Positions 19,318 through 47,834 of a DNA stretch of 64,000 nt are shown here, one piece after another. Made by a program: the position numbers and the translations under genes. The stretch is from a virus (Duplodnaviria > Caudoviricetes): the IMG/VR virus record IMGVR_UViG_3300029288_000107, positions 32,001 through 96,000 of that record; one strand, given 5' to 3'. The notes under the pieces are model-generated. The model saw nothing but the letters and a program-made list of their open reading frames with translations. It did not search any database and was not told where the DNA came from. Every line of letters begins with the position of its first letter. Positions within the stretch are counted from its first letter, which is position 1.

Positions 19318-20049
19318 ATGGGGCTCCGGGCGCTGCTGGCCGTGGTGGAGGCCACCTACGCGCGTGACGCGAGCGTGCGTGAGCAAGCGGAGCGCTTCTA
19401 CAAGGACCTGTACGACTATCTGAACGTGGAGAAGGACGTGCTGGAGCGGCGGCTCACGCCGGGCAAGAACGGCGTGTTCAGCGTCATGGCGCGGGCCTTC
19501 ACGGACGTGGGGCCCGCGAACCTGATCGTGGTGTTCGCCACGTCGGTGGGTGGGCGCAAGGGTGGCACGGGGAAGCTGGGCCATATGGACGCGATGGTGA
19601 TCAACGCGTTGCTGGCACCGGGGGATCTGGCACACCTACAAAGCCGTGTGCAGAAGAACGTTGTGGTTCACGAGATGGTTCACATCCTGGACCCGGGGCG
19701 TCGCAAGGGCCAGATGAGCGCGAAGGCGGTGGAGCGCGGCGACGTGGCGGGCTACTACAACGAGCCCGGCGAGTGGAACGCGTACTGGCAGGAGGGGGCG
19801 TCGCAGCTGGAGCGGATGCTGCGCACGCTGACCAACAATGCCGGTCTGGATCCGGACTCGCGGTCGAAGGCGTTGGACTTCATGTTCGGGGACGGGAGCC
19901 TGCGATCCTTGCAGGGCAAGGTGGAGCGGTTCTGGGACGTTGACTTCCTGGACGCGATGGACGCCAAGGTGCGGCGCAAGTTCGACAAGCGGCTGGCGGC
20001 GCTGTGGGCCGCGTTGCGCGAGCAGGGGATGCTGCGGGGCGCGCCATGA
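19318..20049 (+). CDS. HExxH zinc-metallopeptidase-like protein with head-targeting-like leader
   Basis: HEMVH followed by YYNEPGEWNAY; N-terminus MGLRALLAVVEA. Confidence 0.65.
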   Translation: MGLRALLAVVEATYARDASVREQAERFYKDLYDYLNVEKDVLERRLTPGKNGVFSVMARAFTDVGPANLIVVFATSVGGRKGGTGKLGHMDAMVINALLAPGDLAHLQSRVQKNVVVHEMVHILDPGRRKGQMSAKAVERGDVAGYYNEPGEWNAYWQEGASQLERMLRTLTNNAGLDPDSRSKALDFMFGDGSLRSLQGKVERFWDVDFLDAMDAKVRRKFDKRLAALWAALREQGMLRGAP

Positions 20050-20777
20050 GTCTGCGCGGCCTTGCTCAACTGTTGGAGGGATCGACGGCTTCGCCCGAGG
20101 TGGAGGCCCTCGTCACGGAGATGATGCCGGTGCTGTCGCGGGGGCTGCCGCGGCCGATCATCCGCATGGTGGAGAAGCTGGGGGTGAAGTGGCTGGGTGA
20201 GTGCCGGTACAAGGTGGGCGACGCCACCACGACCATCTCCGTGCAGCGGTTCGTGGCTGGGGATGAGCCGACGCTGCGGCGCGTGATCGCGCACGAGTTG
20301 TGCCACCACGAGGACTTGTTGGCGGGGTGGGATGAAGCGGCGGCGAAGGGCTGGTCAACCGAGACCTTCCTCATGGATCGCAAGATTGAGAGCAAGGGGC
20401 ACGGGCCCGAGTGGCAGGCCATCGCGGCGGAGTTCAACCATCGGTACGGTGCGGGCTTCGTGACGCCCAAGAGCGACGAAAGCTACGCCAAGCAGTCGGC
20501 CACGCGGGACGCGCTGCTGTTGCTGTGGCAGAACGGGGCGCGTCTCATGTGGGCGGTCAGCGTGCGGCCCAGCGCGCGGCAGCGAGCGTACATCGAAAAG
20601 AAGCTGGGCGGCATCGACGGCCCGAGTATGCGGCTGGTGGCGACGCGCGACGTGGATCTGATACAGGGCGGCCCGCGGCCGGGTGATGGGTTCGCGTACT
20701 CCCACGACGTGCGGGTCAACGAGAAGCTGCTGCGGGCGTGGGAGGACGGGAAGAGGGTAGATCTGGCCGATGTGTAG
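20046..20777 (+). CDS. SprT-like zinc metalloprotease with leader
   Basis: IAHELCH and GHGPEW; N-terminus MSLRGLAQLLEG. Confidence 0.75.
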   Translation: MSLRGLAQLLEGSTASPEVEALVTEMMPVLSRGLPRPIIRMVEKLGVKWLGECRYKVGDATTTISVQRFVAGDEPTLRRVIAHELCHHEDLLAGWDEAAAKGWSTETFLMDRKIESKGHGPEWQAIAAEFNHRYGAGFVTPKSDESYAKQSATRDALLLLWQNGARLMWAVSVRPSARQRAYIEKKLGGIDGPSMRLVATRDVDLIQGGPRPGDGFAYSHDVRVNEKLLRAWEDGKRVDLADV

Positions 20778-20787
20778 GAGGCGTGAC

Positions 20788-21321
20788 ATGAGCTTGAGGG
20801 AATTGCGGCGGGACGTCGAGGAGCGGGCGCTGGACGAGGGGCTGGTGGGCAGCATCCTGCGCGGGGCCGGGCGGATCCTCGCGGCGCCGTTCGGCTCGGT
20901 AGCGAGGTCGGCGGAGGCGGCGGCCAAGCGGGCCAAGAACGCCAAGGCGAAGGGCAAGGTGGCAGCGAAGCCGGGGACGAAGGCGAAGCCGAAGGCGGGA
21001 CAGAAGGCGTCGGGGCAGCCCAAGGGGGCTCCCAAGCTGCCAGCGAAGGGCAAGAAGAAGGCGGCTGCCGGGGCGGTGCGGTCGCTGCGACGTGCCTCCA
21101 CGACGCAGTTGGAGCGCACGGCGAAGCGGGCGAAGAACCCGCAGATGCGGGTGGCGGCCAAGCGGGAGCTGGCGCGGCGCAAGGCGGGGCGGGGCAAGCA
21201 GGCGGTAGTCGCGAAGTCGGGGACGCAGGCGAAGCCGAAGCCGAAGGCGGGGCCGAGCCTCGCGAGCCGGGTGCGCGGCGCGCTGGCGGGCGCCAAGACG
21301 GGCTGGAAGGGGTCGCGCTGA
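20788..21321 (+). CDS. Lys/Ala/Arg-rich histone-like protein with leader
   Basis: MSLRELRRDVEERALDEG, then a very basic low-complexity body. Confidence 0.7.
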   Translation: MSLRELRRDVEERALDEGLVGSILRGAGRILAAPFGSVARSAEAAAKRAKNAKAKGKVAAKPGTKAKPKAGQKASGQPKGAPKLPAKGKKKAAAGAVRSLRRASTTQLERTAKRAKNPQMRVAAKRELARRKAGRGKQAVVAKSGTQAKPKPKAGPSLASRVRGALAGAKTGWKGSR

Positions 21322-22178
21322 TGGGGCTGCGGGCCATCCGAGATCGGGCACGGGGCGGCTACCTCGCGGAGGCGCGCGGGGCGGTGGCGGTGGACGTGGC
21401 GGCCTACGCGCGGGACCTCAAGAGCTACGTGTCGCAGTTGAGCATGGGGGCCGAGCGGACGAAGCAACGGTACGACGCGGGCGATCCCGACGTGCGCGAG
21501 CGCTACAAGAACTACGCACCCAGTGGCTACCCGTGGAAGGACGCGCGCATTGACGTGGCAGATCGCGTGCGCGAGACCAAGCGCAACATGGAGGGCGTGG
21601 CGCGGCAGATCGCGGCGGCCGTGGGGCGTGTGGAGGTGTGGTCGGGAACGCCGTTGATGGTTCGGCCGAACTACAGATACAGCGAGAATCATTGGGGCGC
21701 GGAGATGCGGCCGGAGGGGGCGCCGACGGACGCCACGGTGGACTTCGTGGGGGGGCGCAACGCGCCGGGGTTCACGCTGTTCTCGGACGGGACCGTGGAC
21801 GACGTGCTGGACGCGGGGGATCGCGACTTCTTCACGGACCCGGCGGTGGAGGCGGACTACTTCGCGCTGGTGAGCGAGCTGCGCAGTCCGGGCAGCACGG
21901 CGCGGACGGGCAAGGTGGTCACGCTGTTCACGGCGCGGCCGCGCAAGGATCGGGCCCAGTACGACGGGGCTAAGGCGATCCCGCACGGCATCTTCCTGAC
22001 CACGGGAGAGGACCGCGCGTACCGGTTGGGCATGGATCTGGGCGGCGAGCGCGACGTGTACCGGGTGCGCATCGACAGTCGGCACTTGGTGCAGACCTTG
22101 GACGCGGGCGGCGTGCGCGAGTACCAGGCGGTGGGGCGCGGCACGGTGCCAGTGGTGTCGATCGATCTGGTCGCGTGA
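21321..22178 (+). CDS. putative internal head protein; C-terminus possibly ADP-ribosyltransferase-like
   Basis: leader MGLRAIR...YLAEA; C-terminal VTLF...GIFLT...A...VYRV...EY pattern. Confidence 0.5.
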   Translation: MGLRAIRDRARGGYLAEARGAVAVDVAAYARDLKSYVSQLSMGAERTKQRYDAGDPDVRERYKNYAPSGYPWKDARIDVADRVRETKRNMEGVARQIAAAVGRVEVWSGTPLMVRPNYRYSENHWGAEMRPEGAPTDATVDFVGGRNAPGFTLFSDGTVDDVLDAGDRDFFTDPAVEADYFALVSELRSPGSTARTGKVVTLFTARPRKDRAQYDGAKAIPHGIFLTTGEDRAYRLGMDLGGERDVYRVRIDSRHLVQTLDAGGVREYQAVGRGTVPVVSIDLVA

Positions 22179-22191
22179 GAAGGAGGAAGAG

Positions 22192-23052
22192 ATGGGATTC
22201 GTACGGAAGGCAGACATCGAACGGCACCGGGCTGGGTGCCTGGAGGCGCGGGTGGCGGCGGTGCGAGAGGCGGCCGAGCGGGCACTGGGCACGGAGATCG
22301 AGGTGATCGCGACGCACGCGGACCACGCCATCGTGCGGGCGGGCAGCGCCGTGAAGCGGCTGACCTACAGCCTCGCGGAGAGCGGCGGCCTCGCGGGCGG
22401 CGTGGCGGTGGAGGACGCGGACATGGCGGCATTGGAGGGGATGGATCTGGACGCGGCGGTGGCGGAGGATCTGCGGGGCGTTGTGGCGGCCATGCTGGCG
22501 GGGCAGGCACTGCCGCGCACGCGCGTGCGTGACCTGTCGCGCATGGCGCGGCGGGATGGCGCGTACTGGCTGGGCGAGGCCGTGGCGGGGTGCGCGCGGG
22601 TCGAGGCGCCGTGGCGGAACTGGTTCGCGCCGCAGTCGGCGACGGTGCGGGAAGCGCTGCACGGGCGCATCCGGGAGATCGAGGAGCCGGTGCCGCGCCA
22701 GCGCTTCGGCAAGCTGCCGGAGGGCAAGCTGCCGGAGTACGCGGGCGAGCTGCGGGAGGGGCTGGCCGCGCTGCGCGTGGTGGCCCGGGGGCTGTTTGAC
22801 GATTTAACGGACGATGTGGCATACCAAGAGGCGGGATTGGCGGCCGTGCACCAATCGCTGCGCGATGAGGCCAGCACCATGGATCGGGGGTTGGCGTGGT
22901 TGGAGCGGATGGCGTGGGCGGGCAGGGAAGGCGTGGTGGCGACGGCTCACGATCAGATCGCAGCGACGCTGCGGGACGCGCTGGTGGTGCGGGAGCACTT
23001 GCGAACGAGAAGGAGCACGGACCATGGAGAGGAAAGTTCAGCCGCTGAGTGA
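22192..23052 (+). CDS. hypothetical head morphogenesis protein
   Basis: strong RBS; lies between portal and protease. Confidence 0.6.
   Translation: MGFVRKADIERHRAGCLEARVAAVREAAERALGTEIEVIATHADHAIVRAGSAVKRLTYSLAESGGLAGGVAVEDADMAALEGMDLDAAVAEDLRGVVAAMLAGQALPRTRVRDLSRMARRDGAYWLGEAVAGCARVEAPWRNWFAPQSATVREALHGRIREIEEPVPRQRFGKLPEGKLPEYAGELREGLAALRVVARGLFDDLTDDVAYQEAGLAAVHQSLRDEASTMDRGLAWLERMAWAGREGVVATAHDQIAATLRDALVVREHLRTRRSTDHGEESSAAE
22517..22528. repeat. palindrome copy 6 (in CDS)
   Basis: exact 12-mer. Confidence 0.9.
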
Positions 23053-24094
23053 GGACCTGACCGGGCTCGGGTTCACCGACCGGACGCCGGGGGGCGCGCA
23101 GGCGTTCGCGGGGATGATCGATCTCATCCCCGGGGCGTTCGAGCCCACGGGGGCAGCCGGAGCGCCCGCGGCGCCCGCGGCGCCGATGACGGAGGACGCA
23201 GCGCCTGGCGCGGACGCGGCCGACCCCATCGACGGGCCGGTCGTGTCGGAGCAGACGCTGGAGTGCGTCGGCGCCATCCTCGCGCACGCTCCCCTCACGG
23301 AGGACACCGAGATCGACCTGGAGGCCATGGACCCCGAGAAGCTGGAGCAGATGGGTGAGGCCATCGAGCAGCGGCTGCGCGATCTCCAGCAGGTGGTCGA
23401 CGAGATGGCCGACAAGGAGGTCCCGGCGGAGCTGGAGGAGCGCACCAGCGAGATCATGGGGCGCGTGATCACCGAGATCAAGATGCTGCGCATCCTCGGC
23501 GGCAAGGTGACCCGCGTCCTCAAGCGCATCGGCTCTGCGGCGATCAAGGCGCACCGCAAGGCCAAGATGTACTACAAGAAGAAGAAGGCCCATGTGAAGC
23601 AGCTCCGGAAGAAGGCGGGTCGCAAGGCGAAGACCAAGATCATGGCCGCCAAGACGGCGCGCAAGCGGCTCAGCATGGGGCTCAAGAGCATCGCCAAGAA
23701 GGCGGGCGGGGCCATCAAGGGCGCGCTGAGCAAGGTCCGGAAGGCCAAGGGCGGCGGCGGCCTCGTGGCGCACGAGAGCGATCTCGCGGCGCGGCTGTCG
23801 GCCCTGCTGGACGAGGGGCACCGCGAGGATCGCAGCGAGGCGCAGCGCGAGCGCGACGACCTCGTGGAGTGCATCGGCAACGTGCTGACGCTCATCGAGT
23901 GGATCACGCAGGACGACGAGGCGGTCGGCCTCATGGCCGAGGAGTACGAGCGCATCGCGGACGAGTTCTGCGCGGGCGCGCTGAACGAGGCCAAGACGGA
24001 CGAGGCGGCCTTCATCGGGCGCGTGACGCCGATCGTGCGGGCCATCGGGGCCTGCGTGGAGGAGCTGGAAAAAAACTTGGGCCGCTCCGCGTAG
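23024..24094 (+). CDS. putative prohead core protein (acidic-basic-acidic); -1 frameshift could extend it to 24291
   Basis: AGGAG RBS; many L/M-x-E sites; Lys-rich centre; slippery A AAA AAC at 24070-24076. Confidence 0.65.
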   Translation: MERKVQPLSEDLTGLGFTDRTPGGAQAFAGMIDLIPGAFEPTGAAGAPAAPAAPMTEDAAPGADAADPIDGPVVSEQTLECVGAILAHAPLTEDTEIDLEAMDPEKLEQMGEAIEQRLRDLQQVVDEMADKEVPAELEERTSEIMGRVITEIKMLRILGGKVTRVLKRIGSAAIKAHRKAKMYYKKKKAHVKQLRKKAGRKAKTKIMAAKTARKRLSMGLKSIAKKAGGAIKGALSKVRKAKGGGGLVAHESDLAARLSALLDEGHREDRSEAQRERDDLVECIGNVLTLIEWITQDDEAVGLMAEEYERIADEFCAGALNEAKTDEAAFIGRVTPIVRAIGACVEELEKNLGRSA

Positions 24095-24300
24095 CGCAGG
24101 AGGCGCGGGGCTCCGGTTGGGCGCGGACCCGGTCGGAGCGCCGTCGCCGTATCGGTGCGGAAGCGGGGCTGGCGCAGGTGAGACCGGAGGGGTGCAAGAC
24201 GCGGCGCAAGGTGGGCCGCGCCGCCCGGTGGCGGGAGCTGCGGAACCCGATCGCGCGGTCCGAGTTCAAGTTCCACCGGCGTAAGGGGTGAGGAGAACCG

Positions 24301-25941
24301 ATGGGCTGGCTTTTCGAGATGATCCCGACCGGGCTGACGTTGACGGAGGCGGCGGGCGGCAAGCTCACGGCGCGGGGGCTGTTCGGCATCTGCGGCGTGC
24401 CCACGGCGAACGGCCGCATCTACCCGAAGAAGCTGGTGGAGCGGGAGATCGGGCGGCTTGGAGAGCGCATGAAGAACCGGCAGGTGCTGATGCAGCTCGA
24501 TCATCCTTCTGACGGAAAAGCATCGCTGTTGCAAGCGGCGGCGCTGCTCACCGGATTGGACCTCGACGGCGACAACGTCATGGGCGAGGCGGAGATCCTC
24601 GGCACGCCCAACGGCAAGATCCTGCGGGCGCTCATCGAGGCGCAGGTGAAGGTGGGCGTGAGCAGCCGGGGTTTCGGCAGCACCAAGGCTACCAACGAGG
24701 GCGAGGAGGTCGGCGAGGACTTCGCGCTGGCGAGCTACGACTTCGTGGCGGACCCCAGCGTGCGGACCGCGCTTCCCAAGTTCTACGCGGAGAGCGTGGA
24801 GGCGCCCGCCGAGGAGGCGCCGCTGGAGCTGTTCCAGCGGGAGTTCCCGGAGGCGTTCGCGCAGTTGACGGAGGCGGCGACCCGGGACGCGGTGGCGCGG
24901 GCGCAGGAGCAGACGGCGGCCATCATTGCGAAGGCGGTCGAGACGGAACGCACGCGCGTGCGAGACGAGATGACGGAGGCGTTCGAGCACCAGCTGCGGG
25001 ACGCCGTGGTTGGCTTGCGTGAGGATTTGGAGCGCGATCTGCGCGAGGAGTACGAGCGGGACCCGGCGGTGGCGGGGGCCCGGGCGGCGCTGGCGCAGGT
25101 GGTGGAGATGATCCGGCCGTACCAGCAGGCGCCGGACGCCGACGCGGTGCGGGACGCGCTGCGGGCGCGGGAGCTGGAGCTGGCCACGGCGCATGAGGCG
25201 ACGGCGCAGGCGGAGGAGCGGGCGGCGCGGTCGGACCGGCTGCTCGCGCTGGAGACCAAGCTGGCGGGGCACCCGCTGGCGGATCCGCTGCGCAAGGTGC
25301 TGGCGCCGGTGGTGGCGCGCGAGCGCGATGAGGGGCTGGCCGGGCGGCTGGACGACCTCATTGCGGAGGCGGCCGACATGGTCCCGGCGAGCGAGGTGGA
25401 GGCGCGGGCGGCCGAGCGCATCGCGCTCACCGAGGCGCAGGATCTGATCAAGGAGAACGAGCAGAAACGGTCCCAACTGGCGGAACGGGTGGACGAGTTG
25501 AAGGCCAAGTTGGTCGAAGCGGTGAAGCTGGGGCAGGAAGCGGACGGGCTGCGGGCGGAGGCCGAGCAGCGCGCGGAGGAGGCGGAAGCCAAGCTCGACG
25601 AGGGCGAGGCGGAGGTCGACGAGCGCGAGCTGGCGGCATTCAAACGCGGTGCGGCGGCGATTCTGCCTGCGGGCGCACGGGCGCGCAAGCTCATCGAGGC
25701 GGCTGGCGACGAGGCCGAGGTGGAGCAGGTGCTGGTGGAGAGCAGGGCGCAAGCCATGGGTGACGGGGACTTGGAGCAGGCGCGGCAGGCGGTCCGGGGC
25801 CGAGGGATGGCACCGGGGGCGGCCGCGTTCCGGCTGGAGGAGGGGGCGTCGCGCGGTGGTGCGCGGGGCTCCGACGAGGTGGTCTCGGCCACGGGCCTGA
25901 CCGCCAACGACATGACCGCGCTACTAGGAGACGGTCAGTAG
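24301..25941 (+). CDS. prohead protease (T4 gp21-like) fused to coiled-coil scaffold
   Basis: NGRIYP, QLDHP, GTPNGKI, GVSSRGFGS, YDFVADPS; long Glu/Ala coiled coil. Confidence 0.93.
   Translation: MGWLFEMIPTGLTLTEAAGGKLTARGLFGICGVPTANGRIYPKKLVEREIGRLGERMKNRQVLMQLDHPSDGKASLLQAAALLTGLDLDGDNVMGEAEILGTPNGKILRALIEAQVKVGVSSRGFGSTKATNEGEEVGEDFALASYDFVADPSVRTALPKFYAESVEAPAEEAPLELFQREFPEAFAQLTEAATRDAVARAQEQTAAIIAKAVETERTRVRDEMTEAFEHQLRDAVVGLREDLERDLREEYERDPAVAGARAALAQVVEMIRPYQQAPDADAVRDALRARELELATAHEATAQAEERAARSDRLLALETKLAGHPLADPLRKVLAPVVARERDEGLAGRLDDLIAEAADMVPASEVEARAAERIALTEAQDLIKENEQKRSQLAERVDELKAKLVEAVKLGQEADGLRAEAEQRAEEAEAKLDEGEAEVDERELAAFKRGAAAILPAGARARKLIEAAGDEAEVEQVLVESRAQAMGDGDLEQARQAVRGRGMAPGAAAFRLEEGASRGGARGSDEVVSATGLTANDMTALLGDGQ
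24950..24961. repeat. palindrome copy 7 (in CDS)
   Basis: exact 12-mer. Confidence 0.9.
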
Positions 25942-25969: not shown

Positions 25970-27616
25970 ATGACGAACAGCAACGGAATGGAGGCCCGGA
26001 GCCTGCTGGAGCAGGCGGGCGGGCGCGGACAGGGCACCATGCTCGACGAGTCCTACAACGCGCAGGTCGTGCGCAAGTGGTCCGACATGGACGTGCAGGG
26101 CGGGAAGGTCAACTTCCTGCGCGACCTCGACCCGCAGCGGGCTAAGGTGGCGGCGCTGTGTCTGGAGAACCAGGCGCGGTTCCTGCGCAACCTCAACGAG
26201 GACACGCTTTCGACGAACAGCGGCAGCTTCCAGAAGTACATCTTCCCGGTCGTGCGCCGCCTGTTCCCGAACCTGATCCTCAACGACATCGCGACGGTGC
26301 AGCCCATGACGGGTCCGCAGGGCGCGATGTTCACGCTGGAGTACCGCTACGACGACCGCAAGGGCACCAAGCGTCCGTGGGGCGGCATCGCGTTGCAGCC
26401 GTACCAGATGGGGTACGAGGGCGCGCTGGCGGCGAGCGACGACGCGATCAAGAACTTCGCGAAGAACTACGCGAACGAGTACGTGGACTACGACGCGGTC
26501 TGCACCGACACCGGCGCGGCGCCCGCGACGCTGTCCAACACGGATCTCAACTGCCGCGTCCCGGCCTGGTGGCCGATCCGGGCCCCGGGAACCAGCGGGC
26601 AGCGCACCTTCGCCGTGACGGCGGTGTGCCGTGTGACGGACGCTGCGGTGCCGGTGGTCGGCGCCTACACCAGCATCAGCACCAAGGCGGCGGCGACGGC
26701 GGTCCTCACGGACCAGTACGCGCACGCGACGGGCACGCTGGACATCTCGACGGGCGCGTGGACGGTCAACGCGCTGCTCATCGCGGGCGGCGCCTCGACG
26801 TTCGTGGCGAACACGGTCATCTACCTCCAGTACTGGGTCAACAGCGAGTTGACCTACACGGTCACCGGCAACCGGCTCCAGCGCATGTCGCTGAACCTGA
26901 CCCGGCACGACATCGTGGCCGAGCCGTGGCGGCTCAGCGCGGCCTGGTCGCTGGACGCGGCGCAGGACCTGCGGGCGCAGCAGGGCATGGACCTCGAAGC
27001 CGAGATGGTGGCGGGCATCGCCAACGAGATCGGCTGCGAGATCGACCGCACCGGCATCGACATGATGATCAACGGCGCGGCGCACGCGGCGTCGTACGCC
27101 TACGCGGGCACCTGGCCGGGCGACATGGAGAAGATCCACACGGCGGTCACCTACATCGACGCGCTGAGCGCCGCCATCTCGAAGGCGGGCGGGCGCGGCC
27201 CGGCGACGTTCGTGGTGGCGGGGCCGGAGGCGTCGGCGCTGCTCGGGCAGCTCGGCGCGCACACCGACTGGGCGAGCAACATGCAGATGCAGCAGCCCGC
27301 GTCGCACGGCGACCGCAACACGAACTACCCGATCAAGCGGGTGGGCTCGATCAACGGGAAGTACACGCTGTACGAGAACCCGTGGCAGGACAGCACGAAG
27401 GTGCTGGTCGGCTACAAGGGCGGCTCGTGGCTGGACGCGGGCTTCGGCTACGCGCCGTACATCCCGCTCTACGCGACGGACACCTGGACCGATCCGGACA
27501 CCCTGATCCAGAAGAAGGGCATGGCCAGCCGCGGCGCGCTGAAGCTGCTCCGTTCGGAGTACTACGGCGTGCTCACGCTCACCGGCCTGCCGACCGTCAC
27601 GTCGACCCTCGCCTAG
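25970..27616 (+). CDS. major capsid protein, T4 gp23-like
   Basis: LENQ, PVVRR, VQPMTGP, WSLDAAQDL, EIDR, VGYKG, YAPYIPL. Confidence 0.95.
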   Translation: MTNSNGMEARSLLEQAGGRGQGTMLDESYNAQVVRKWSDMDVQGGKVNFLRDLDPQRAKVAALCLENQARFLRNLNEDTLSTNSGSFQKYIFPVVRRLFPNLILNDIATVQPMTGPQGAMFTLEYRYDDRKGTKRPWGGIALQPYQMGYEGALAASDDAIKNFAKNYANEYVDYDAVCTDTGAAPATLSNTDLNCRVPAWWPIRAPGTSGQRTFAVTAVCRVTDAAVPVVGAYTSISTKAAATAVLTDQYAHATGTLDISTGAWTVNALLIAGGASTFVANTVIYLQYWVNSELTYTVTGNRLQRMSLNLTRHDIVAEPWRLSAAWSLDAAQDLRAQQGMDLEAEMVAGIANEIGCEIDRTGIDMMINGAAHAASYAYAGTWPGDMEKIHTAVTYIDALSAAISKAGGRGPATFVVAGPEASALLGQLGAHTDWASNMQMQQPASHGDRNTNYPIKRVGSINGKYTLYENPWQDSTKVLVGYKGGSWLDAGFGYAPYIPLYATDTWTDPDTLIQKKGMASRGALKLLRSEYYGVLTLTGLPTVTSTLA

Positions 27617-28085: not shown

Positions 28086-28086
28086 C

Positions 28087-29368: not shown

Positions 29369-29752
29369 ATGAAGACGGTAAGGGATCTGATGGAGGGCAC
29401 GGGCGAGGGGGTCGAGTTCTCCGCGTTGCAGAACGAGATTGCGGTCAAGTTCCTCGGGGCGGCGGCCAAGGCCATCAAGGCGTTCGCCAAGGGGCACGTG
29501 ACGAAGGCGGAGGTGAACGAGGGGCGGAACCACGCCGCGACCTACCTGTCCGTGGAGGCCACGACGCTTGGCGACATCGAGTTCTCGTGGACCTGCCAGA
29601 TCATGGTCGTGGACACGTTCGCGTGCGAGCTGCACGCCATGACGAATCGGGCCGACGAGCGGCGCACCGTCGACAGCAAGATGCGGCTCGCGATGGGGGA
29701 GTGCACCCCGGCGAAGGTCGTGGAACTGTTCAAGCAGGCGTACGGGATCTAG
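29369..29752 (+). CDS. putative internal head protein
   Basis: leader MKTVRDLMEG. Confidence 0.6.
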   Translation: MKTVRDLMEGTGEGVEFSALQNEIAVKFLGAAAKAIKAFAKGHVTKAEVNEGRNHAATYLSVEATTLGDIEFSWTCQIMVVDTFACELHAMTNRADERRTVDSKMRLAMGECTPAKVVELFKQAYGI

Positions 29753-29784: not shown

Positions 29785-31311
29785 ATGGACGAGCGGCAAC
29801 CGATCGATGAGGCCAAGTTTCCAGCGGCGGGCAAGGGCATGGAGTGGGGCGAGAAGGAGCCGGTCGCGCCGGAGACGTTGCCGTCGTTCGTGGAGAAGTT
29901 GAAGCGGGACGAGGGCATGTTCGTGCTCGCCACCTACACGCGCATGACGTGGTTCGACCGCAAGGCGTGGGAAGCGTGGGAGCGGACCGGCAAGCTGATG
30001 ATCAAGGTGGCCAAGGACGGACGGAACTTCTGGACGTTGGAGGGGCGTGGCGTCAAGTACGTGTTCACGCAGCCGACGTCGATCTTCTGGTTGCCACGGC
30101 AGCCGGTGGAGGAGAGCATGGACGCGAACGACATGCGGAGTTGGATCGATCGGTGCGCGGGCATCGAGGTGGCGGCGGTGGCGGAGGCGGTGCGGCCGCT
30201 CGGGGGGCTGGACGTGGCGGCGGCGGACGACGAGGTGCAGATCCACTTCGAGAGCGCGGCCGACGCGCAGCTGGTCTACGACTTCCTGATCGGGGCGGGC
30301 ACTGGCGTCCGGCTGCTGGAGCCCGGCGAGGTGCAGCTGCGGGTCATCGAGGGATGGGACCAGTGCACGGTGGCGTTCGCGCCGCACGTGCGGTACCTCA
30401 AGCCGGAGATCATCGCGGCCGTGCTGGAGGCGTTTGCCGACCGCATCCACGAGGCGGCGTGGGATGCCGCGCAGCGCGACCTCGCGGAGGAGGTGCAGGC
30501 GCTCCAGGAGTTCAACCCGTACCACGACAAGCAGGGCAACTTCGGGTCCAAGGCGGGGCTGGCGGCGGCCAAGGCGGGCTCCTACAGCAAGGGGAGCCGC
30601 AAGAACAAGGTCAGCGGCAAGACCAAGAAGGGCCTCAAGCTGGTGGCCACCAAGTTGCCGTGCGGGCGCGACGCGCGGGACTCGGGCCGGAACCAGCGAT
30701 GCTGGGACGGCGCGAAGCTGGACTGGACGGGGCAGGCCGCGGCGCGCGTGCTCAAGAAGGCCAAGGCGCAGGGCAAGATCCACGATGCGGTCACGGCGTA
30801 CGACCGTGCGATCCTGGAGCGGGCGGCGCGGGCGCTGGACGCGCGAGCGGCGATGATGGACGAGGCGGCGGGCGCCAAGAAGCTGCGTACAGCGGTCAGC
30901 ACGGCCTACAACAAGTACTTCGAGAACGTGCCGGTGGACATCTTCGCGATCGGCAAGATCGGCAAGGAGATCGAGGCGCTGATCGTGGCGGGCAAGGACC
31001 TGGACGCGGAGATGCCCGCGATCGTGAAGAAGTACCGGAAGGAAGAGTCGGATGGGCGCTCCGTGCGGGACCTGCTGAGCGAGCTGGGCGGGCAGACCTT
31101 CGGGGGGCGGCGCGGGGGCCGTGATCCGTACTGGATGGCCGCCAAGTACGCGGGAAAGGACAAGAACGGGACGCCGTTCCGGAAGGGCGACCAGGTCTTC
31201 TACTACCCGAACACGAAGACGGTGCTGGCTGGCGACGCGGCGGAGAAGGCGGCGGCGGAGTTCCAGGGGGCCAAGGACGACGAGCGGCAGTACAACTACG
31301 GCATGGAGTAG
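29785..31311 (+). CDS. modular putative head polyprotein
   Basis: modules separated by IDEA, VEES, IHEA, LQEF, MDEA, LSEL; FNPYHD..G.F motif. Confidence 0.65.
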   Translation: MDERQPIDEAKFPAAGKGMEWGEKEPVAPETLPSFVEKLKRDEGMFVLATYTRMTWFDRKAWEAWERTGKLMIKVAKDGRNFWTLEGRGVKYVFTQPTSIFWLPRQPVEESMDANDMRSWIDRCAGIEVAAVAEAVRPLGGLDVAAADDEVQIHFESAADAQLVYDFLIGAGTGVRLLEPGEVQLRVIEGWDQCTVAFAPHVRYLKPEIIAAVLEAFADRIHEAAWDAAQRDLAEEVQALQEFNPYHDKQGNFGSKAGLAAAKAGSYSKGSRKNKVSGKTKKGLKLVATKLPCGRDARDSGRNQRCWDGAKLDWTGQAAARVLKKAKAQGKIHDAVTAYDRAILERAARALDARAAMMDEAAGAKKLRTAVSTAYNKYFENVPVDIFAIGKIGKEIEALIVAGKDLDAEMPAIVKKYRKEESDGRSVRDLLSELGGQTFGGRRGGRDPYWMAAKYAGKDKNGTPFRKGDQVFYYPNTKTVLAGDAAEKAAAEFQGAKDDERQYNYGME

Positions 31312-31837: not shown

Positions 31838-32140
31838 ATGAAGGTGCGGGATCTGATCGAAGTTGATCAGGGGCGTGACATTTGGATGGCGGGCATCGAG
31901 GAGATCGAGGGCCTGACCGGGCGGAACCAGCACGCGGAGGCGCTGCTGGCCAAGGCGAAGATGCTGCGGGCGCGCCGCGAGATGGCCGTCATCGCGCTGA
32001 TCCAGAAGATCCAGGACGTGGAAGGCGAGATGCCCGAAGAGTTGCAGCGCTACAAGAACGCGATCGGCAAGCGGCTGGACGCGGCGGCCAAGAACAAGGT
32101 GCCCGCAGATCTGCTGGATCGCTTCGTGCGGGCAGCGTGA
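31838..32140 (+). CDS. putative internal head protein
   Basis: leader MKVRDLIE. Confidence 0.6.
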   Translation: MKVRDLIEVDQGRDIWMAGIEEIEGLTGRNQHAEALLAKAKMLRARREMAVIALIQKIQDVEGEMPEELQRYKNAIGKRLDAAAKNKVPADLLDRFVRAA

Positions 32141-32349: not shown

Positions 32350-33204
32350 ATGCCCCTGCTGCTGAGCATCGACGGCGGCGGCGCGTTGGGCATCGGGCCC
32401 TGCGAGCTGCTGGCACGGCTGGAGGAGGCGCAGGGGCGGCTGTTGCCGGACGCCTACGCGGGGACGTCAGTGGGGGCGCTGCTGGCGGCCCTGGCGGCGA
32501 CGGGGCGGCCCTGGAGCCACGTGCGGGAGATCTTCATGCGGGAGTGCCCCGGCATCTTCGAGCGGCCGTCGTGGGCGTGGCGGATGAACCCGTGGCGGCC
32601 CCGGTACGACGGTCGGGCGCTGCGGCGGGCCGCGCAGACCTACTTCCAGGACCAGCGGATGTGCGAGGTTGAGGTGCCGATCTTCCTGACCAGCTTCGAC
32701 TTCCACACGGGGCGGCCCAAGGTCTGGGATCGGGGCGACGCCACGCCGATCTGGCGGGCCGTGCTGTGCAGCGCGGCGGCGCCGACCTACTTCCACATCG
32801 TGGAGGGGCGCTACGGGGACGGTGGACTGGTGGCCAACAACCCGGCCATGGTCGGCTTGGCAGGCTGCGCGGCCAAGGAGAGTTGGGATCTGCGGACCGC
32901 GCGCTGCCTGAGCCTGGGCACGAACGGCGACGCGTGGCGGGACCCCAAGGTGGCGCACCGGACGTTGCTGGGCTGGCTGCGGCCGCTGCTGGCGACCTTC
33001 ATGGAAGGCAACGAGGAGCTGGCAGACTTCGAGGCGCGGGCCGTGCTGGGCGACCGTCTGCGGCGCGTGGAGCCCGCGCTGCGGCACGAGGTCAAGATGG
33101 ACGACGTGGCGGCGGCGCTGGGCCCGTACCGGCAGCGCTGGGTCGACCTGTGGCACGCGGAGAAGGACGCGATCCTGCTGTGGCTGCGGCGCACGGCGAC
33201 GTAG
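32350..33204 (+). CDS. patatin-like phospholipase
   Basis: IDGGGALG, GTSVG, SAAAPTYF, DGGLVANNP, LSLGT. Confidence 0.93.
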   Translation: MPLLLSIDGGGALGIGPCELLARLEEAQGRLLPDAYAGTSVGALLAALAATGRPWSHVREIFMRECPGIFERPSWAWRMNPWRPRYDGRALRRAAQTYFQDQRMCEVEVPIFLTSFDFHTGRPKVWDRGDATPIWRAVLCSAAAPTYFHIVEGRYGDGGLVANNPAMVGLAGCAAKESWDLRTARCLSLGTNGDAWRDPKVAHRTLLGWLRPLLATFMEGNEELADFEARAVLGDRLRRVEPALRHEVKMDDVAAALGPYRQRWVDLWHAEKDAILLWLRRTAT

Positions 33205-42050: not shown

Positions 42051-42057
42051 CGGACGC

Positions 42058-42069: not shown

Positions 42070-42085
42070 GCACGGGTGATCAGCG

Positions 42086-42700: not shown

Positions 42701-42709
42701 GAGCTAATC

Positions 42710-43033
42710 GTGAATGGACTGCGCGAGGTATTGCGGCGGGTGCAGGAGGCGGCGGTTCCGGTGGCGGCGTGGCCGGAGCAGTGGAGGCGCTGGGCGCCCG
42801 AGTTGGCGGACCAGCGGGTTGGTCAGCGCATGACGGCGGATCGGGTGCCCGTACTGCGCAAGGAGGGGCTGGACGGGGAGTGGGCCGTGGAGCGCGAGCG
42901 GGACGGGACGTTCCAGATGTCTTGTACTGTGGGCGTGGCGCGGAACTGGAAGTGGACGGGCGTAGCATGGTACAGGCGCCGATCCACCGGGGGTCGGATC
43001 CGGAGGAGACGGTGCCCATGCGGTGCGAGGTGA
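42710..43033 (+). CDS. hypothetical protein with leader (MNGLREVLRRVQEA); 3' end uncertain
   Basis: AGGAG RBS; may be the frameshifted first half of a gene ending at 43236. Confidence 0.5.
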   Translation: MNGLREVLRRVQEAAVPVAAWPEQWRRWAPELADQRVGQRMTADRVPVLRKEGLDGEWAVERERDGTFQMSCTVGVARNWKWTGVAWYRRRSTGGRIRRRRCPCGAR

Positions 43034-43236
43034 CTCTGCGGCCCAGTGAGCGTGGTGTCGCGTGGGACTGGAGCGTGGTGCAGGGCGAGCGCGACGAGGA
43101 AGTAGGGGCCGACGAGGGACAGGTGCCGTGGGCGCGGGTGGATGCGCTATCTGGCGTGGTGCGGGCGGCGGCGCGGGCCTTCGAGTCGGCGCAACGGGCG
43201 GTGGAGAACGGCGACGATTTGGACGTGGGAGACTAG
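43018..43236 (+). CDS. hypothetical protein
   Basis: GAGGAG before ATG 43018. Confidence 0.45.
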   Translation: MRCEVTLRPSERGVAWDWSVVQGERDEEVGADEGQVPWARVDALSGVVRAAARAFESAQRAVENGDDLDVGD

Positions 43237-43237
43237 A

Positions 43238-43672
43238 GTGGCGGACCTTGAAGCGGCCCGGGAGGTGGTGGAGCTGGCGCTGGCCGACCTGCGACGGGTC
43301 GGAGCGGTGCGACGCTACCGGGTCGGTGCTGGGGATGGGGCAGCCCGCGGCATCGCTACGCTGTACGGGCGGCACATGGAGGAGCGGGGCGAGGTGCGCA
43401 TCGAGGTGGTGCCGGACGGGTCCGATGCGGAGGTCGCCGTGCGCTGGACGTCGCCGCTGGGCGGGCGCTGGTGGGCGGAGGTGGTGGACCTGCCGGGGGG
43501 TGGCGCGGACCCGTACGGGGCGGCGTGGAGCATGCTGGACGCCGTGCTGGCGGACGTGCGGCGCTGGGCGACGGGATCCATTCGACCGGAGCAGTTGACG
43601 ACGGCGTACAGCCGTCCCAAGATCCGAGCCACCGTCGAGGCGGCGTGGGCGCGGGGGATGACGTGGGCATGA
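43238..43672 (+). CDS. hypothetical protein
   Basis: GTG start 1 nt after the upstream stop; ATGA overlap. Confidence 0.55.
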   Translation: MADLEAAREVVELALADLRRVGAVRRYRVGAGDGAARGIATLYGRHMEERGEVRIEVVPDGSDAEVAVRWTSPLGGRWWAEVVDLPGGGADPYGAAWSMLDAVLADVRRWATGSIRPEQLTTAYSRPKIRATVEAAWARGMTWA

Positions 43673-44298
43673 AGGCGATCTGCATCGCACCGAAGTTCAA
43701 CTCGGGGGCCAAGCACGATGCGACTGGCGCGTTTCAGCCGGAGGCGCGGGCCTTCGTGAAGCGGTGGGGAGGCACGCTGCTGCTGGTGGACAACCTTGCT
43801 GGTAAGGCGGCCATGCGGCGCGCCGTGCTGGAGGCGGTGGGGGCGGACCCGCCCGACGTGCTGGCGCTGTTCTGCCACGGGTGGAACACGGGCATCCAGT
43901 TTGGGTTCGGGCTGCGGGATGTGCCCGCGCTGGCCGAGCTGTTCCGGCGGAACGACCACGATCCGGTGATCGCGATCTACGGCTGCCTGACCGGCGGCAG
44001 CGCGGGGCCCGGCGGCGACGGGGGCTTCGCGGACGTGCTGCGGGATGCGCTCTGTGCGGTGGGGCAGGTGCAGTGCCAGGTGGACGCGCACACGACTGCG
44101 GGGCACGCGACGCGGAACCCGTACGTGCGACGCTTCGAGGGCGGGGGCGTGGCGAGCGGGGGCGTGGGGGGCTACTACCTCGTGACGCCGAGGTCGGCCA
44201 AGTGGCAGCGGTGGGTGCGGGCCTTGCAGGGCGATCTGCGGCTGCGCTTCCCGCTCATGTCCGCGATGGAGATTCATGCGGAGCTGGAGGGAGCATGA
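43669..44298 (+). CDS. putative clan CD (His-Cys) peptidase-like protein
   Basis: LALFCHG and IAIYGCLTG, then FA..L. Confidence 0.55.
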   Translation: MKAICIAPKFNSGAKHDATGAFQPEARAFVKRWGGTLLLVDNLAGKAAMRRAVLEAVGADPPDVLALFCHGWNTGIQFGFGLRDVPALAELFRRNDHDPVIAIYGCLTGGSAGPGGDGGFADVLRDALCAVGQVQCQVDAHTTAGHATRNPYVRRFEGGGVASGGVGGYYLVTPRSAKWQRWVRALQGDLRLRFPLMSAMEIHAELEGA

Positions 44299-44504
44299 GC
44301 CTGCGGGACTTGCGGCGGAGCATCGAGGAGAAGCGGCGGGTGGACCGGGATCCGGCCAAAGAGCTGTTCCACCGGTACTTCGACGACAAGCAGGTGCACA
44401 TGGAGGACGTCGCGAAGGTGATCGCGGAGATCGAGGACGCGCTGCGCGAGGGCAAGGACCCGAAGGCGTTCATGCCGGACCTCGTGCGGCGCTGGGGCAA
44501 GTAG
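44295..44504 (+). CDS. putative internal head protein, paralogous to a module of the 29785 protein
   Basis: leader MSLRDLRRSIEE; YF...V...K...EIE...GKD...MP..V. Confidence 0.7.
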   Translation: MSLRDLRRSIEEKRRVDRDPAKELFHRYFDDKQVHMEDVAKVIAEIEDALREGKDPKAFMPDLVRRWGK

Positions 44505-44505
44505 C

Positions 44506-44517
44506 GCACGCGCGTGC
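44506..44517. repeat. palindrome copy 12 (intergenic, after TAG)
   Basis: extends to a 16-mer. Confidence 0.9.
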
Positions 44518-44528
44518 GCAAGGAGGCG

Positions 44529-44972
44529 ATGATGGACAGGGTGTTGTTCGGGATCATGCTGATCGGGATCACGGTGGCGATGGTGGCGTGCGCGGTGACG
44601 GGCGTGCCGCGGGCGCGGCGGGGCGTGCGGGCTCTGGGCGGCATGACGGACGATCAGTGCGTGGCGCTCATGGAGAAGCGGGACGATGTGCTGCTGGCGG
44701 CTAAGATCCTCGGCGGCGTGGGTGGGCTCGGCGCGCTGGCCACGCCGCTGGTGGACATGGAGGACGACCGCAAGGAGCAGAACGCGCAGTGGGGCATCGC
44801 GGCGGGCGCCGGGACGGTGTCGGCGGTGGCCGTCGGCGTACTTTGGTACGGCGAGCGCAAGAGCCAAGAGTTCGAGCTGTACTGCGAGATGGCGGAGCGG
44901 GACGCGACGAGCGGGGCGAGCCCGGTGCTGGACGACCAGTACGGGCCGGGGGCGGTCGATGCCGGGCAGTAG
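44529..44972 (+). CDS. membrane protein (signal peptide or TM plus two Gly-rich helices)
   Basis: AGGAGG RBS; three hydrophobic segments. Confidence 0.65.
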   Translation: MMDRVLFGIMLIGITVAMVACAVTGVPRARRGVRALGGMTDDQCVALMEKRDDVLLAAKILGGVGGLGALATPLVDMEDDRKEQNAQWGIAAGAGTVSAVAVGVLWYGERKSQEFELYCEMAERDATSGASPVLDDQYGPGAVDAGQ

Positions 44973-45783
44973 GCGCGCGCTGCTGGTGGGCATCAACGCC
45001 TACCCGGGGCAACCCTTGGCGGGCTGCGTGGCGGACACGGCGGCGCTCGCGGAGCGGCTGGTGGCGCGCTACGCGTTCCGGCGGGCCGACGTGCGGGTCG
45101 TGACGGACGCGCGGGCCACGGCGGCGGCCATCCGGGCGCGGCTCGCGTGGCTGGTGGCGGGCGCCAAGCCCGGCGACGAGTTGGTCTACGCGTTCAGCGG
45201 GCACGGCGTGCAGGTGGCGGCGCGCACCGCGGCGGGCGAGGTGGACGGGCTGGACGAGGCTCAGGTGCCGGTGGACTTCGACTGGACGGACGGCACGCTC
45301 ATCCGAGACGACGATCTGGCGACGGTGTTCGTGGCGATCCCGGCCGGGGCGCACCTCACGGTGATCTCAGATAGCTGTCACAGCGGCACGCTGGCGCGCG
45401 AGTGGTCGCCGATCCGGCGGCTGCTGGGCCGCACGCGTCGGGCGCGGACCATGACGGTGCACGGGGATCTGGTGTGGCGCAACGCGGCGGCGCAGGGGCA
45501 CAAGCGGAACGGCCGCGTGCCGGTGCTGGCGGCGGGGGCGTGGCTGGAGGCGTGCCGGGCCACGCAGACGGCGGCGGACGCGTGGTTCGGGCGGAAGCCG
45601 AGGGGGGCTTTCAGCTACTGCTTTGGGCAGGCGCTGGATCGGGATCCAAACGTGACGCTGGCCGACCTGCGCGTGCTTGTGGGTCGCGGGCTGACGCGGG
45701 CCGGGTTCGGGCAGGATCCGGTGTTCGAGGGTGCAGAGTTGCATCGCCCGTTCTTGGGTGGCGTGCGGGAGGCGACGTCGTGA
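44959..45783 (+). CDS. metacaspase (peptidase C14)
   Basis: RALLVGINAY, L.GCV.D, FSGHG, SDSCHSG. Confidence 0.93.
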   Translation: MPGSRRALLVGINAYPGQPLAGCVADTAALAERLVARYAFRRADVRVVTDARATAAAIRARLAWLVAGAKPGDELVYAFSGHGVQVAARTAAGEVDGLDEAQVPVDFDWTDGTLIRDDDLATVFVAIPAGAHLTVISDSCHSGTLAREWSPIRRLLGRTRRARTMTVHGDLVWRNAAAQGHKRNGRVPVLAAGAWLEACRATQTAADAWFGRKPRGAFSYCFGQALDRDPNVTLADLRVLVGRGLTRAGFGQDPVFEGAELHRPFLGGVREATS

Positions 45784-46418
45784 GGACGGTGCGGGAGTTG
45801 CTGCGCGAGGCGGCGCGCGTCGCAGAGGCGGACGTGCGGGCGATGCCGTGGAAGTTCGGAGCGGCGGCCTACCAAGCCGCGTTGGGAGTGCACCAACCGT
45901 GGATCGCGGAGATCTCGCCGATGCAGTACGCGCACATGGGGAAGTCACAGAAGGCGGCGTACGACAAAAAGCGGTCGGCGGAGTGGGACGCGAGCGCCGC
46001 GGTGAAGCAGGAGTGGCGGGCGGCGGTGGCGGCCGCGTACCAGTCGGGGGAGTTCGATCCCAAGGATGCGGACGTGCACCCGGAGGCGGTGGCGGTGGCG
46101 CGCGAGGCAGATCGGGCGAAGGCGGACGCGGAAGCGAAGGTGGTGCGCGCGGTCAAGAACAGGGAGAACGCGATCACGGACGCCAAGCAGGTGAAGGTGG
46201 GGGATCGCGTGTGGCTGGTCATCCAACGCGCCTACGCAGAGGTGCTGAAGGTGTCGACGAAGAGTGTGGTGGTGAAGGGGGCGTTCGGACCGTACAAGGT
46301 GCCGGTGCAGGAGCGGACGCCGCTGCTGCTGTGGAACGATCCGCGAGAAGTGGGAGAGGCGGTGACGGTGCTGGCGTTGATGGGCGAGGCGGTGCTGGAG
46401 AGGGCGGAATGGCTGTAG
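45780..46418 (+). CDS. putative internal head protein, SH3/KOW-like C-terminus
   Basis: leader VRTVRELLREA; VKVGDRV...VLKVSTKSV. Confidence 0.6.
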   Translation: MRTVRELLREAARVAEADVRAMPWKFGAAAYQAALGVHQPWIAEISPMQYAHMGKSQKAAYDKKRSAEWDASAAVKQEWRAAVAAAYQSGEFDPKDADVHPEAVAVAREADRAKADAEAKVVRAVKNRENAITDAKQVKVGDRVWLVIQRAYAEVLKVSTKSVVVKGAFGPYKVPVQERTPLLLWNDPREVGEAVTVLALMGEAVLERAEWL

Positions 46419-46437
46419 GAGGGAAGGCGGTGGAGGG

Positions 46438-46734
46438 ATGAGTCTCGGACGGAAGCTGATACGGATGGGCACGCCGGAGGGGGATCTGCCGCCGCGGCTG
46501 CTGGCGCAGGTGGGGCGGCTGCGGACGGACGCGGTGCGGTTCTGCCAGGGGCGTGAGGCGCACGGATCGGTGGTGCTGGAGGGGGCGGCCGTGGTGGTGG
46601 ACCTCACGGGGCGGGATGCCGCGTTTGTGGCACGTCAACTCGCGCGGCGCGTGCTTGCACCGCTCCACGCGGTAGTGGAAGATGGTGGACGAGGTCACGC
46701 GCGGCTGCGGGTGACGGAGGAGACGTCGCAGTGA
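46438..46734 (+). CDS. hypothetical protein
   Basis: GGAGG RBS; GTGA overlap. Confidence 0.55.
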   Translation: MSLGRKLIRMGTPEGDLPPRLLAQVGRLRTDAVRFCQGREAHGSVVLEGAAVVVDLTGRDAAFVARQLARRVLAPLHAVVEDGGRGHARLRVTEETSQ

Positions 46735-47405
46735 GGACGGTGCGGGAGCTGATGGGAGAGGACGACGCGGTAACGACCACGGCGGACATACCTAGCATCC
46801 CGATGCCGTTCGTAGCGCCTGCTCGAAGGCGCAAGCGCAAGAGGGTGCACGCCATGAAGATCGGCGAGGAGATCGTCATCAACGAGTGGAAGACCCGGCC
46901 GGTCGGCGACGACAGCTGGGAGGTCAAGGTCGGCAAGAAGTGGGTGCAGGGGCGGTGGCGCACCATCGGGAAGCAGCGCGTGTTTCTCAAGGGGAGCGGT
47001 GGCACGCTGCCCGAGAAGCCGAACGCGATGCAAGCGAAGAAGCCGGGCCTCGTGGCGAAGATCAAGGCAGCCCTGTCGGGCGCCGTGGAAGGGTGGCGAA
47101 AGGGCCACCGATCGGAGGATATGAACATGAGCGAGATCGGACGGATTGCGCGGTCCTTGCAGGAGGCCGAGGGCAAGAAGGCGGCCAGCAAGAACGTCAT
47201 CGAGCTGCTGGCGGTGGACATGACGGAGGCGCCCAAGGTCGTGCGGCGGCTGGAGAAGCTGCTCGGCGACAAGGCGGCCGAGGCGGGCCCCGGGCTGGCG
47301 GAGGCGCTGATGCCGACCATCACCAAGTGGCTGGAGGCGCAGGGGCTGCGCGTGCAGGGCACGGCAGCGGCCGAGAAGGCGCTCAAGCAGTCGGCGCGGG
47401 CGTAG
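46731..47405 (+). CDS. putative modular internal head protein
   Basis: leader VRTVRELMGE; internal INEW, VEG and LQEA sites. Confidence 0.6.
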   Translation: MRTVRELMGEDDAVTTTADIPSIPMPFVAPARRRKRKRVHAMKIGEEIVINEWKTRPVGDDSWEVKVGKKWVQGRWRTIGKQRVFLKGSGGTLPEKPNAMQAKKPGLVAKIKAALSGAVEGWRKGHRSEDMNMSEIGRIARSLQEAEGKKAASKNVIELLAVDMTEAPKVVRRLEKLLGDKAAEAGPGLAEALMPTITKWLEAQGLRVQGTAAAEKALKQSARA

Positions 47406-47414
47406 GGGGAGATC

Positions 47415-47834
47415 ATGGCGAAAGATCTGGAACAGATGGTCCTGGACGAGGACAGCATCGCAGAGATGGGCGAGATGTGGTTCGACGCCAACCCCGACGT
47501 GTTCGACGAGGCAGGCGTGGACCTGGCGGAGGGCTGGACCGACGATCCGCCCGAGGAACTGGACCAGATCGCGCAGGATGCGGCGGTGGACATCGTGGAC
47601 CAGCTGCGCAACCCGGAGGACGGCAGCGCTGGCATCGCGGTGCTGAACGAGGCGGACCAGCTGGCGAACCTGCTGTACTTCAAGTTCGCCGAGTTGACGG
47701 CGGCCAGCCCCGAGGACTTCGACGCCTGGTTCGAGACGCTGGAGGACGAGGTCGACGACGAGGACGAGGCGGAGGACGACCTTGGCGACGTTGGCGAGCC
47801 CGGCGACGAGCCCGAGGTCGACGACGAGGCGTAG
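47415..47834 (+). CDS. highly acidic protein
   Basis: D/E-rich; LDED, LAEG and LNEA sites. Confidence 0.7.
   Translation: MAKDLEQMVLDEDSIAEMGEMWFDANPDVFDEAGVDLAEGWTDDPPEELDQIAQDAAVDIVDQLRNPEDGSAGIAVLNEADQLANLLYFKFAELTAASPEDFDAWFETLEDEVDDEDEAEDDLGDVGEPGDEPEVDDEA

Follow-up and report, generated by a model that had tools for sequence, protein, structure and literature searches.

In phage T4, propeptides of 10–20 residues direct head proteins to the prohead core and are cut off by the protease gp21, and the internal proteins of T-even phages are diverse, defence-related and have only the targeting sequence in common (PMC5694885, PMC3012670). The T4 genes located between portal and protease (67 and 68) encode core proteins that are likewise cut by gp21 (PMC5694885). 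In the giant phages phiKZ, 201phi2-1 and SPN3US, a gp21-related protease cuts many inner-head proteins at (S/A/G)-x-Glu, and the long propeptides of these head and ejection proteins are thought to be prohead-targeting (PMC5694885). For polyvalent proteins, in which zincin-like metallopeptidase and ADP-ribosyltransferase (ART) are the commonest domains, packaging in the capsid and delivery together with the DNA have been predicted (Iyer et al. 2017, PMC5512222). Here we describe a 64,000-nucleotide stretch of phage DNA (the window; bases 32001–96000 of the 104,812-bp IMG/VR viral record IMGVR_UViG_3300029288_000107), in which ten genes of the structural operons begin with a short leader, 8–17 residues in length, ending in hydrophobic-x-Glu. 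By analogy with T4, we read this shared N-terminus as a capsid-targeting propeptide of the T4 type, which would load proteins into the prohead core and be removed by the S77 protease of the phage, the enzymes among them then being delivered with the DNA; we give this reading a probability of roughly 0.72.

Leaders at the starts of ten structural genes

The initial annotation had listed ten N-termini sharing a leader, and all ten were found to read exactly so (Table 1); the observation is confirmed. Genes, named here by their start positions in the window, were called over the whole 104.8-kb record with a codon model trained on long open reading frames, giving 166 genes. The pattern M-x(1,2)-[LV]-R-[AGED]-[LIVM] was present at 10 of the 166 gene starts, compared with 0.61 expected from its internal frequency (Poisson ~1e-9). 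All ten fell among the 64 genes of the structural part and none among the remaining 102 (Fisher 4.6e-5). An equal frequency in early genes, which had been named as an outcome that would refute the annotation, is thus not seen. Within 15 residues after the pattern, [LIVM]-x-E was found at all ten gene starts and in 23 of 56 (41%) internal matches. A less circular motif, derived only from T4 leaders, gave 5 hits against 0.63 expected (P 5e-4). Eight of the ten genes start 5–12 nucleotides (nt) 3' of a recognizable Shine-Dalgarno-like purine run. Leader codons vary among the genes (CTC/CTG/TTG, CGG/CGC/AGG and GAT/GAC/GAG/GAA), so that selection acts at the level of the peptide, and the 18 identical nt reported at the starts of 45780 and 46731 were confirmed. 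Past the leader the cargo had been described as unrelated, and BLASTP detected no similarity, with one exception: the 44295 product matches a module within the 29785 protein. A possible eleventh leader, MRDVIE|A, was noticed at 64564, just past the end of the window, and an acidic 139-residue protein (47415–47834) starts MAKDLEQMVLDE|D, a look-alike with Lys for Arg that stands outside the count of either pattern.

The window is 68% G+C and carries every gene but one on the + strand; the record has an estimated completeness of 57% (CheckV). It belongs to a lineage very distant from T4: a search of GenBank phages at the DNA level gave no match, no deposited phage has a capsid protein more than 30% identical to the present one, and identity to those of cultured T4-like phages is 25–30%. 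The closest capsid-protein relatives (70–83% identical) are 19–53-kb sequences from Logan and ENA, and a search of IMG/VR with the sheath protein found no close relative. A capsid-protein alignment search recovered 80 IMG/VR loci, and two whole relatives were compared, G1 (161 kb, 49% capsid identity) and G3 (195 kb with terminal repeats, 47%).

On the family matches (Table 1), the head module is of T4 type: the portal is gp20-like, the capsid protein gp23-like and the protease an S77 enzyme of gp21 type. The protease domain spans residues 11–173 of the 24301 product and matches the solved T4 gp21 structure (PDB 5JBL, 1.4e-11); in the BLASTP alignment to T4 gp21 (NC_000866, 9e-18), His66 and Ser122 align with the catalytic His85 and Ser140. 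The 24301 protease, which the initial annotation had named for a cleavage assay, is a gp21-family enzyme with catalytic His and Ser, and an S77 protease was encoded in all four phage genomes examined (the present record, G1, G3 and Salicola phage SCTP-2). Beyond the protease domain the product continues for approximately 370 residues that are acidic, scaffold-like in composition and contain 23 [LIVM]-x-E sites, and this part looks like a fused scaffold. In G1 and G3 the products of the homologous protease genes are 921 and 589 residues long, and these two phages have portals of 897–1289 residues. Upstream of the protease gene in the window, the 23024 product has a very basic middle, acidic ends and 14 [LIVM]-x-E sites; its G3 homolog starts MGKRAIHTSLEE|D and is encoded directly 5' of the protease. 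Ranking proteins by their density of [LIVM]-x-E, as a way to recognize scaffold or cargo, was rejected, the motif being too common and the top-ranked proteins being unrelated small ones.

The capsid protein is itself headed by a leader, MEARSLLE|Q (from Met7), followed by MLDE|S and then by an invariant LNE|D, and the sites LLE|Q and LDE|S in the capsid protein and LTE|A in the protease are present as annotated. MEAR-x-hydrophobic-hydrophobic-E was kept in 19 capsid relatives, down to 34% identity, and also in dozens of IMG/VR loci. Compared with T4 gp23, the capsid protein is longer at its N-terminus by approximately 24 residues. Placing its maturation site by alignment to T4 gp23 was unsuccessful, since the T4 site has no aligned Glu here, and LNE|D is no more than a candidate.

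Leaders read from the T4 record are MKTYQEFIAE|A for IPII and IPIII, MAKINELLRE|S for gp24, MELITELFDE|D for Alt and MLKEQLIAE|A for gp22. By this comparison the T4-leader type is plain in MKTVRDLME|G, MRTVRELLRE|A and MRTVRELMGE|D, and the likeness to T4 that the initial annotation had pointed to holds against real T4 leaders. The two systems share the wording MKT-x-[QR]-[ED]-[FL]-[IM]-x-E, the string ELLRE of gp24 and an N-terminal leader of 10–17 residues ending in (L/I/V/M)-x-Glu on otherwise unrelated proteins, together with a protease of the same family and catalytic residues, a T4-type portal and capsid, core genes between portal and protease, and an ART-type cargo that recalls Alt, the prototype of a packaged ART. 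They differ in that the present lineage has more tagged genes per genome (10–12 in the present phage, no fewer than 12 in G3), an Arg nearly fixed in the leaders of the present phage, a capsid protein with its own leader in an extra N-terminal piece, a protease fused to a long C-terminal part, and a composite protein in which tagged modules are joined and a leader stands internally. Compared with the giant phages, whose propeptides are mostly longer than 100 residues and have a small residue two before the Glu, the present leaders are of T4 length, with that position taken by Leu, Ile, Val or Met. Taken on these comparisons, the system of the window is most likely a member of the T4 capsid-targeting and gp21 system in a distant, uncultured, high-GC lineage.

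Table 1. Genes and regions of the window that bear on the leader system (a vertical bar in a leader marks the predicted cut; aa, amino acids; AF2, AlphaFold2)
Positions	Strand	Feature	Leader	Basis
17593..19314	+	Portal protein, T4 gp20 type		Pfam Portal_T4 1.4e-49; PHROG portal 1e-44
19318..20049	+	Zincin-like HExxH protein, 243 aa (predicted)	MGLRALLAVVE|A	Family alignment, AF2
20046..20777	+	Protein with SprT-like metalloprotease domain, 243 aa	MSLRGLAQLLE|G	Pfam SprT-like
20788..21321	+	Very basic Lys/Ala-rich protein, 177 aa, isoelectric point (pI) 12	MSLRELRRDVEE...LDE|G	Composition
21321..22178	+	Protein with predicted C-terminal ART fold, 285 aa	MGLRAIRDRARGGYLAE|A	AF2, VIA, Foldseek
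22192..23052	+	Conserved head-module protein of the portal-protease interval	No clear leader	Homologs in same position in G1 and G3
23024..24094	+	Scaffold/core-like protein	MERKVQPLSE|D	Composition
24301..25941	+	Prohead protease, T4 gp21 family, with acidic C-terminal part		Pfam Peptidase_S77 1.3e-21
25970..27616	+	Major capsid protein, gp23 type		Pfam Gp23 5.2e-56
29369..29752	+	127-aa protein	MKTVRDLME|G	N-terminus reading
29785..31311	+	Composite 508-aa protein with internal leader copy		BLASTP
31838..32140	+	100-aa helical protein	MKVRDLIE|V	N-terminus reading
42710..48400	+	Hypervariable slot, tail-tube genes (41520, 42086) to baseplate-hub block (48909, 50126)		Synteny
42710..43236	+	Frame-switching gene, weakest member	MNGLREVLRRVQE|A	Coding potential
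44295..44504	+	57-aa module	MSLRDLRRSIEE|K	N-terminus reading; BLASTP to 29785
45780..46418	+	202-aa protein	MRTVRELLRE|A	ELLRE core identical to T4 gp24 leader
46731..47405	+	Basic 214-aa protein	MRTVRELMGE|D	N-terminus reading

Leader sites and cargo domains

The 19318 product belongs to a large family, for which 283 representatives of 50%-identity clusters were found. Across an alignment of 73 members, D17, H118, E119, H122, Y146 and E152 were invariant, and hydrophobic-x-E stood 0–5 residues ahead of D17 in all 73 (4–5 residues in 64). The residue two before the Glu (P3) was Leu in 44, Ile in 13 and Val in 5, Leu or Ile thus accounting for 57 of 73, and the median leader length was 11. The AF2 model has a predicted local distance difference test (pLDDT) score of 92.7 overall and of 52 for residues 1–10, with strands in 54–98 and helices at 113–124 and 150–173; it places the HExxH motif on one helix, after a small beta sheet, and the downstream Glu (E152) on the next helix, as expected of a zincin. 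Searches with the model gave no convincing fold (best Foldseek E value 0.17; best VIA Z score 5.4, confined to the helical C-terminus), and matches to the Pfam M90 and YgjP-like families were below cut-off. By its invariant motif and modelled topology, the product is predicted to be zincin-like. A cultured member of the family is gp462 of Salicola phage SCTP-2, which starts MKLEQLFE|D. The HExxH domain was also seen inside proteins of 1100–1440 residues (P0177, P0179, P0224, P0239 and P0253), and some of the large homologs carry two or three HExxH motifs in architectures resembling those of polyvalent proteins.

Next to it, the 20046 product matched Pfam SprT-like (PF10263) with an E value of 4.7e-6 and 26.9 bits (cut-off 25.6) and has HELCH at residue 83. 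Together with the invariant HExxH and downstream Glu of the 19318 family, this is in line with the annotation of two zinc proteases. A 69% ortholog of the 20046 cargo has a shorter leader, MRRLEE|D, and the cargo was sought in five relatives and not found there. For the 20788 product, which had been called histone-like, the Lys/Ala-rich composition and pI of 12 agree with the label, the basis of which is composition only, and family searches gave no hit.

Of the 27 homologs found for the 21321 product, approximately 20 have a short, variable leader ending in hydrophobic-x-E ahead of the conserved domain, and a few are missing the N-terminus or show no clear site. Conservation of both leader and Glu site is therefore seen in two cargo families. 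The AF2 model (pLDDT 87.8 overall, 42–51 for residues 1–19) bears out the annotation of this product as ART-like: residues 196–285 are modelled as an ART fold, matching KptA with a VIA Z score of 8.5 (root-mean-square deviation 2.9, 82 aligned) and TreTu and diphtheria toxin with 8.1, and most of the top 40 VIA rows were ART-fold proteins. Foldseek matched Tpt1 and tankyrase with E values of 1e-3 to 1e-1, and the ESM Atlas agreed with the ART fold. Within the family R206 is invariant and T227 and Y268 are nearly so, while Glu267 is not conserved. In both the 19318 and the 21321 models the leader lies outside the folded domain with low confidence, and the site is fixed before the conserved domain, so that both families have their predicted cut exactly where the fold begins.

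These payload domains match those of the polyvalent proteins, a likeness that extends to the large 19318 homologs. The two systems differ in that the domains of the window are mostly separate small genes, each with an address leader of its own, and in that release would be brought about here by the head protease at leader sites, not by a built-in metallopeptidase.

Searches of PHROGs with the ten cargo proteins gave no match for any, and NCBIfam and PDB sequence searches with the cargo gave nothing useful. In the 42710 gene, the weakest member, coding potential passes from the 42710 frame to that of 42769–43236 near position 42940; the change may reflect a (programmed) frameshift, an assembly error or decay.

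Leader-bearing genes in relatives

In G3, M-[RK]-x-[LIV]-[LIVM]-E was present at 12 of 266 gene starts versus 2 of 1332 internal Met, and 12 of its 16 occurrences in six frames were gene starts. The leader genes of G3 cluster directly after two tail-tube genes (spanning the contig ends) and at 35.6–37.8 kb, and G1 has a similar cluster at 104–116 kb. In the window, the region between the tail-tube genes and the baseplate-hub block had no protein match in G1 or G3, both of its flanks being syntenic, and the equivalent slot of G3 holds approximately 18 kb of leader-bearing genes. By synteny, this slot is hypervariable, with different leader-bearing genes filling it in each genome.

Counterparts of 19318, 20046 and 20788 were sought in G1 and G3, and none was found. 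The ART-fold cargo is encoded in the portal-protease interval here and in the post-tube array in G3 (45% identity, 8e-52). A 70% relative (L003) has MRTVRDLLAE|S on a 135-residue protein that occupies the slot neighbouring the 29369 position and has no homolog in the present genome. The leader had been proposed to be portable, and in L003, G1 and G3 the same leader indeed stands on different cargo.

The 29785 protein has two C-terminal modules with stand-alone counterparts, one joint being a leader copy. Residues 368–417 (30886–31035) resemble the mature 44295 product (BLASTP 5e-7); residues 425–433 (31057–31083) hold a copy of the leader within the chain, RSVRDLLSE|L, ahead of a module; and a stand-alone G1 gene of 88 residues aligns to residues 425–500, leader included (51% identity, 9e-18). 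The correspondence between the G1 gene and the internal module, together with the location of cargo in different slots, shows that leader-plus-module units are shuffled and sometimes fused.

Proposed role, alternatives and neighbouring genes

By analogy with T4, we infer that the tagged proteins bind the core, are cleaved after the Glu, stay in the head and are ejected, as follows. Proteins headed by the leader, with a consensus of approximately M-x-x-[LV]-R-[DE]-L-[LIM] and an end in hydrophobic-x-Glu, would join the scaffolding core while the prohead assembles on the portal. The core is probably made up of the 22192 and 23024 products together with the acidic extension at the C-terminus of the protease, and the capsid protein, with the same leader at its start, would close the shell around core and cargo. 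The gp21-family serine protease would then cut after the Glu, removing the leaders and dismantling the scaffold, and would also cut composite proteins such as 29785 at their internal leader copies. The mature proteins would remain in the head with the DNA, and at least the enzymes (the ART-fold protein and the two HExxH metallopeptidase-like proteins) would probably be ejected into the host at infection. Leader-plus-cargo units behave as cassettes: the variable slots of the structural operon acquire and lose them, and the units change place and become fused. Those predictions of the initial annotation that could be computed all held, and its interpretation is supported.

The leader might instead mark parts of the prohead core or scaffold only, which would be cut by the protease and lost or left inert, with no payload delivered to the host. 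Four of the leader genes stand where T4 has genes 67 and 68, the gp21-cut core proteins between portal and protease (PMC5694885), the 23024 product and the C-terminal part of the protease look scaffold-like, and several members are small and helical, or basic, and have no enzyme motif. For some small members this explanation is probably correct; as an account of the whole set we consider it unlikely, given that three members have enzyme-type domains typical of injected effectors, that the leader set is hypervariable between relatives with conserved head proteins, unlike essential assembly parts, and that three of the portal-protease genes have no counterpart in G1 and G3, which build the same head. 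A tag for machinery other than the head (a modifying enzyme, a secretion or membrane route, loading of the tail lumen or a translation-initiation element) would suit the location of four of the ten leader genes among tail genes, but is less probable still. The leader is too little hydrophobic for a signal peptide, with its varying codons it is not an RNA element, and no radical-SAM domain was found in the 104.8-kb record, which is an estimated 57% complete; the leader is also present on the capsid protein and next to the scaffold, and in every case its end, at the fold edge, is the motif at which the head-protease family cuts.

Given a genome of 68% G+C in which Leu, Arg, Ala, Glu and Asp abound, such N-termini might be put down to chance or composition, or to scars of recombination kept at the DNA level: the leader residues are the commonest in the proteome, and two leaders have 18 nucleotides in common. 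Such an origin has a negligible probability: ten leaders were observed against 0.6 expected, with none in the 102 non-structural genes, synonymous codons differ among the leaders, and the leader logic recurs in G3 (55% G+C) and in AT-rich family members. Chance as an explanation is excluded.

Several points weigh against the capsid-targeting reading. The main enrichment pattern was written from the hits, making its statistic post hoc, and [LIVM]-x-E alone is common in the proteome (1.9 per 100 residues), so that single sites are weak evidence. As the leader is short, its resemblance to T4 could have arisen by convergence under the demands of the protease; no Glu of the capsid protein aligns with the site at which T4 gp23 is cleaved. 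Accessory enzymes without a leader, the patatin 32350 and the caspase-domain protein 44959, are located in the slots of leader genes. Tail-assembly chaperones with a frameshift are usually encoded just after tail-tube genes, and 42710, which stands in that place, may not be head cargo. Some of the small leader-bearing members may likewise be prohead-core parts rather than injected effectors.

To our knowledge, the T4 capsid-targeting mechanism has been demonstrated experimentally only in T-even phages; capsid targeting in the window would extend it to a distant environmental lineage and suggest a general rule for phages with gp21-type proteases. In a broader form, which we regard as having an even chance of being right, phages of this lineage (160–195 kb, with T4-type heads), and probably a wider range of phages with gp21-family proteases, would use a leader of 6–17 residues ending in the protease cutting motif as a universal plug-in address. 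Leader-cargo cassettes would be swapped among hypervariable slots, chiefly that between tail tube and baseplate, would sometimes be fused into polyproteins for the head protease to cut, and would load a fast-changing arsenal of injected enzymes that includes a zinc-peptidase family of at least 283 sequence clusters. A simple rule, a leader with hydrophobic-x-Glu at the fold edge, would list candidate head-packaged and host-injected proteins in metagenomic phages that are otherwise invisible. In the window, the ART-fold protein, the two zinc-peptidase-like proteins and the very basic protein are candidates for early host take-over or counter-defence, and the short leader may be useful as a packaging tag.

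Among the neighbouring genes, 32350–33204 encodes a patatin-like phospholipase without a leader, located among the head-tail genes (Pfam 1.3e-24; CBASS lipase model 5e-33, below cut-off). The caspase-domain protein (44959–45783; Peptidase_C14, 2e-24) lies in the hypervariable slot, also has no leader, and is encoded immediately 5' of 45780, the start of which it overlaps. Between the variable slot and the baseplate hub, a tRNA-Glu(TTC) gene (48222–48294) and a gene for a nucleoside 2-deoxyribosyltransferase-like protein (49097–49660; Pfam 5e-13) were found. The sole minus-strand gene (34206–35417) encodes a 403-residue TnpB / IS605 OrfB protein (OrfB_IS605 2e-30, Cas12f1-like TNB 2e-23, HTH_OrfB 8e-20); it occupies a lower-GC stretch and breaks up the structural operon.

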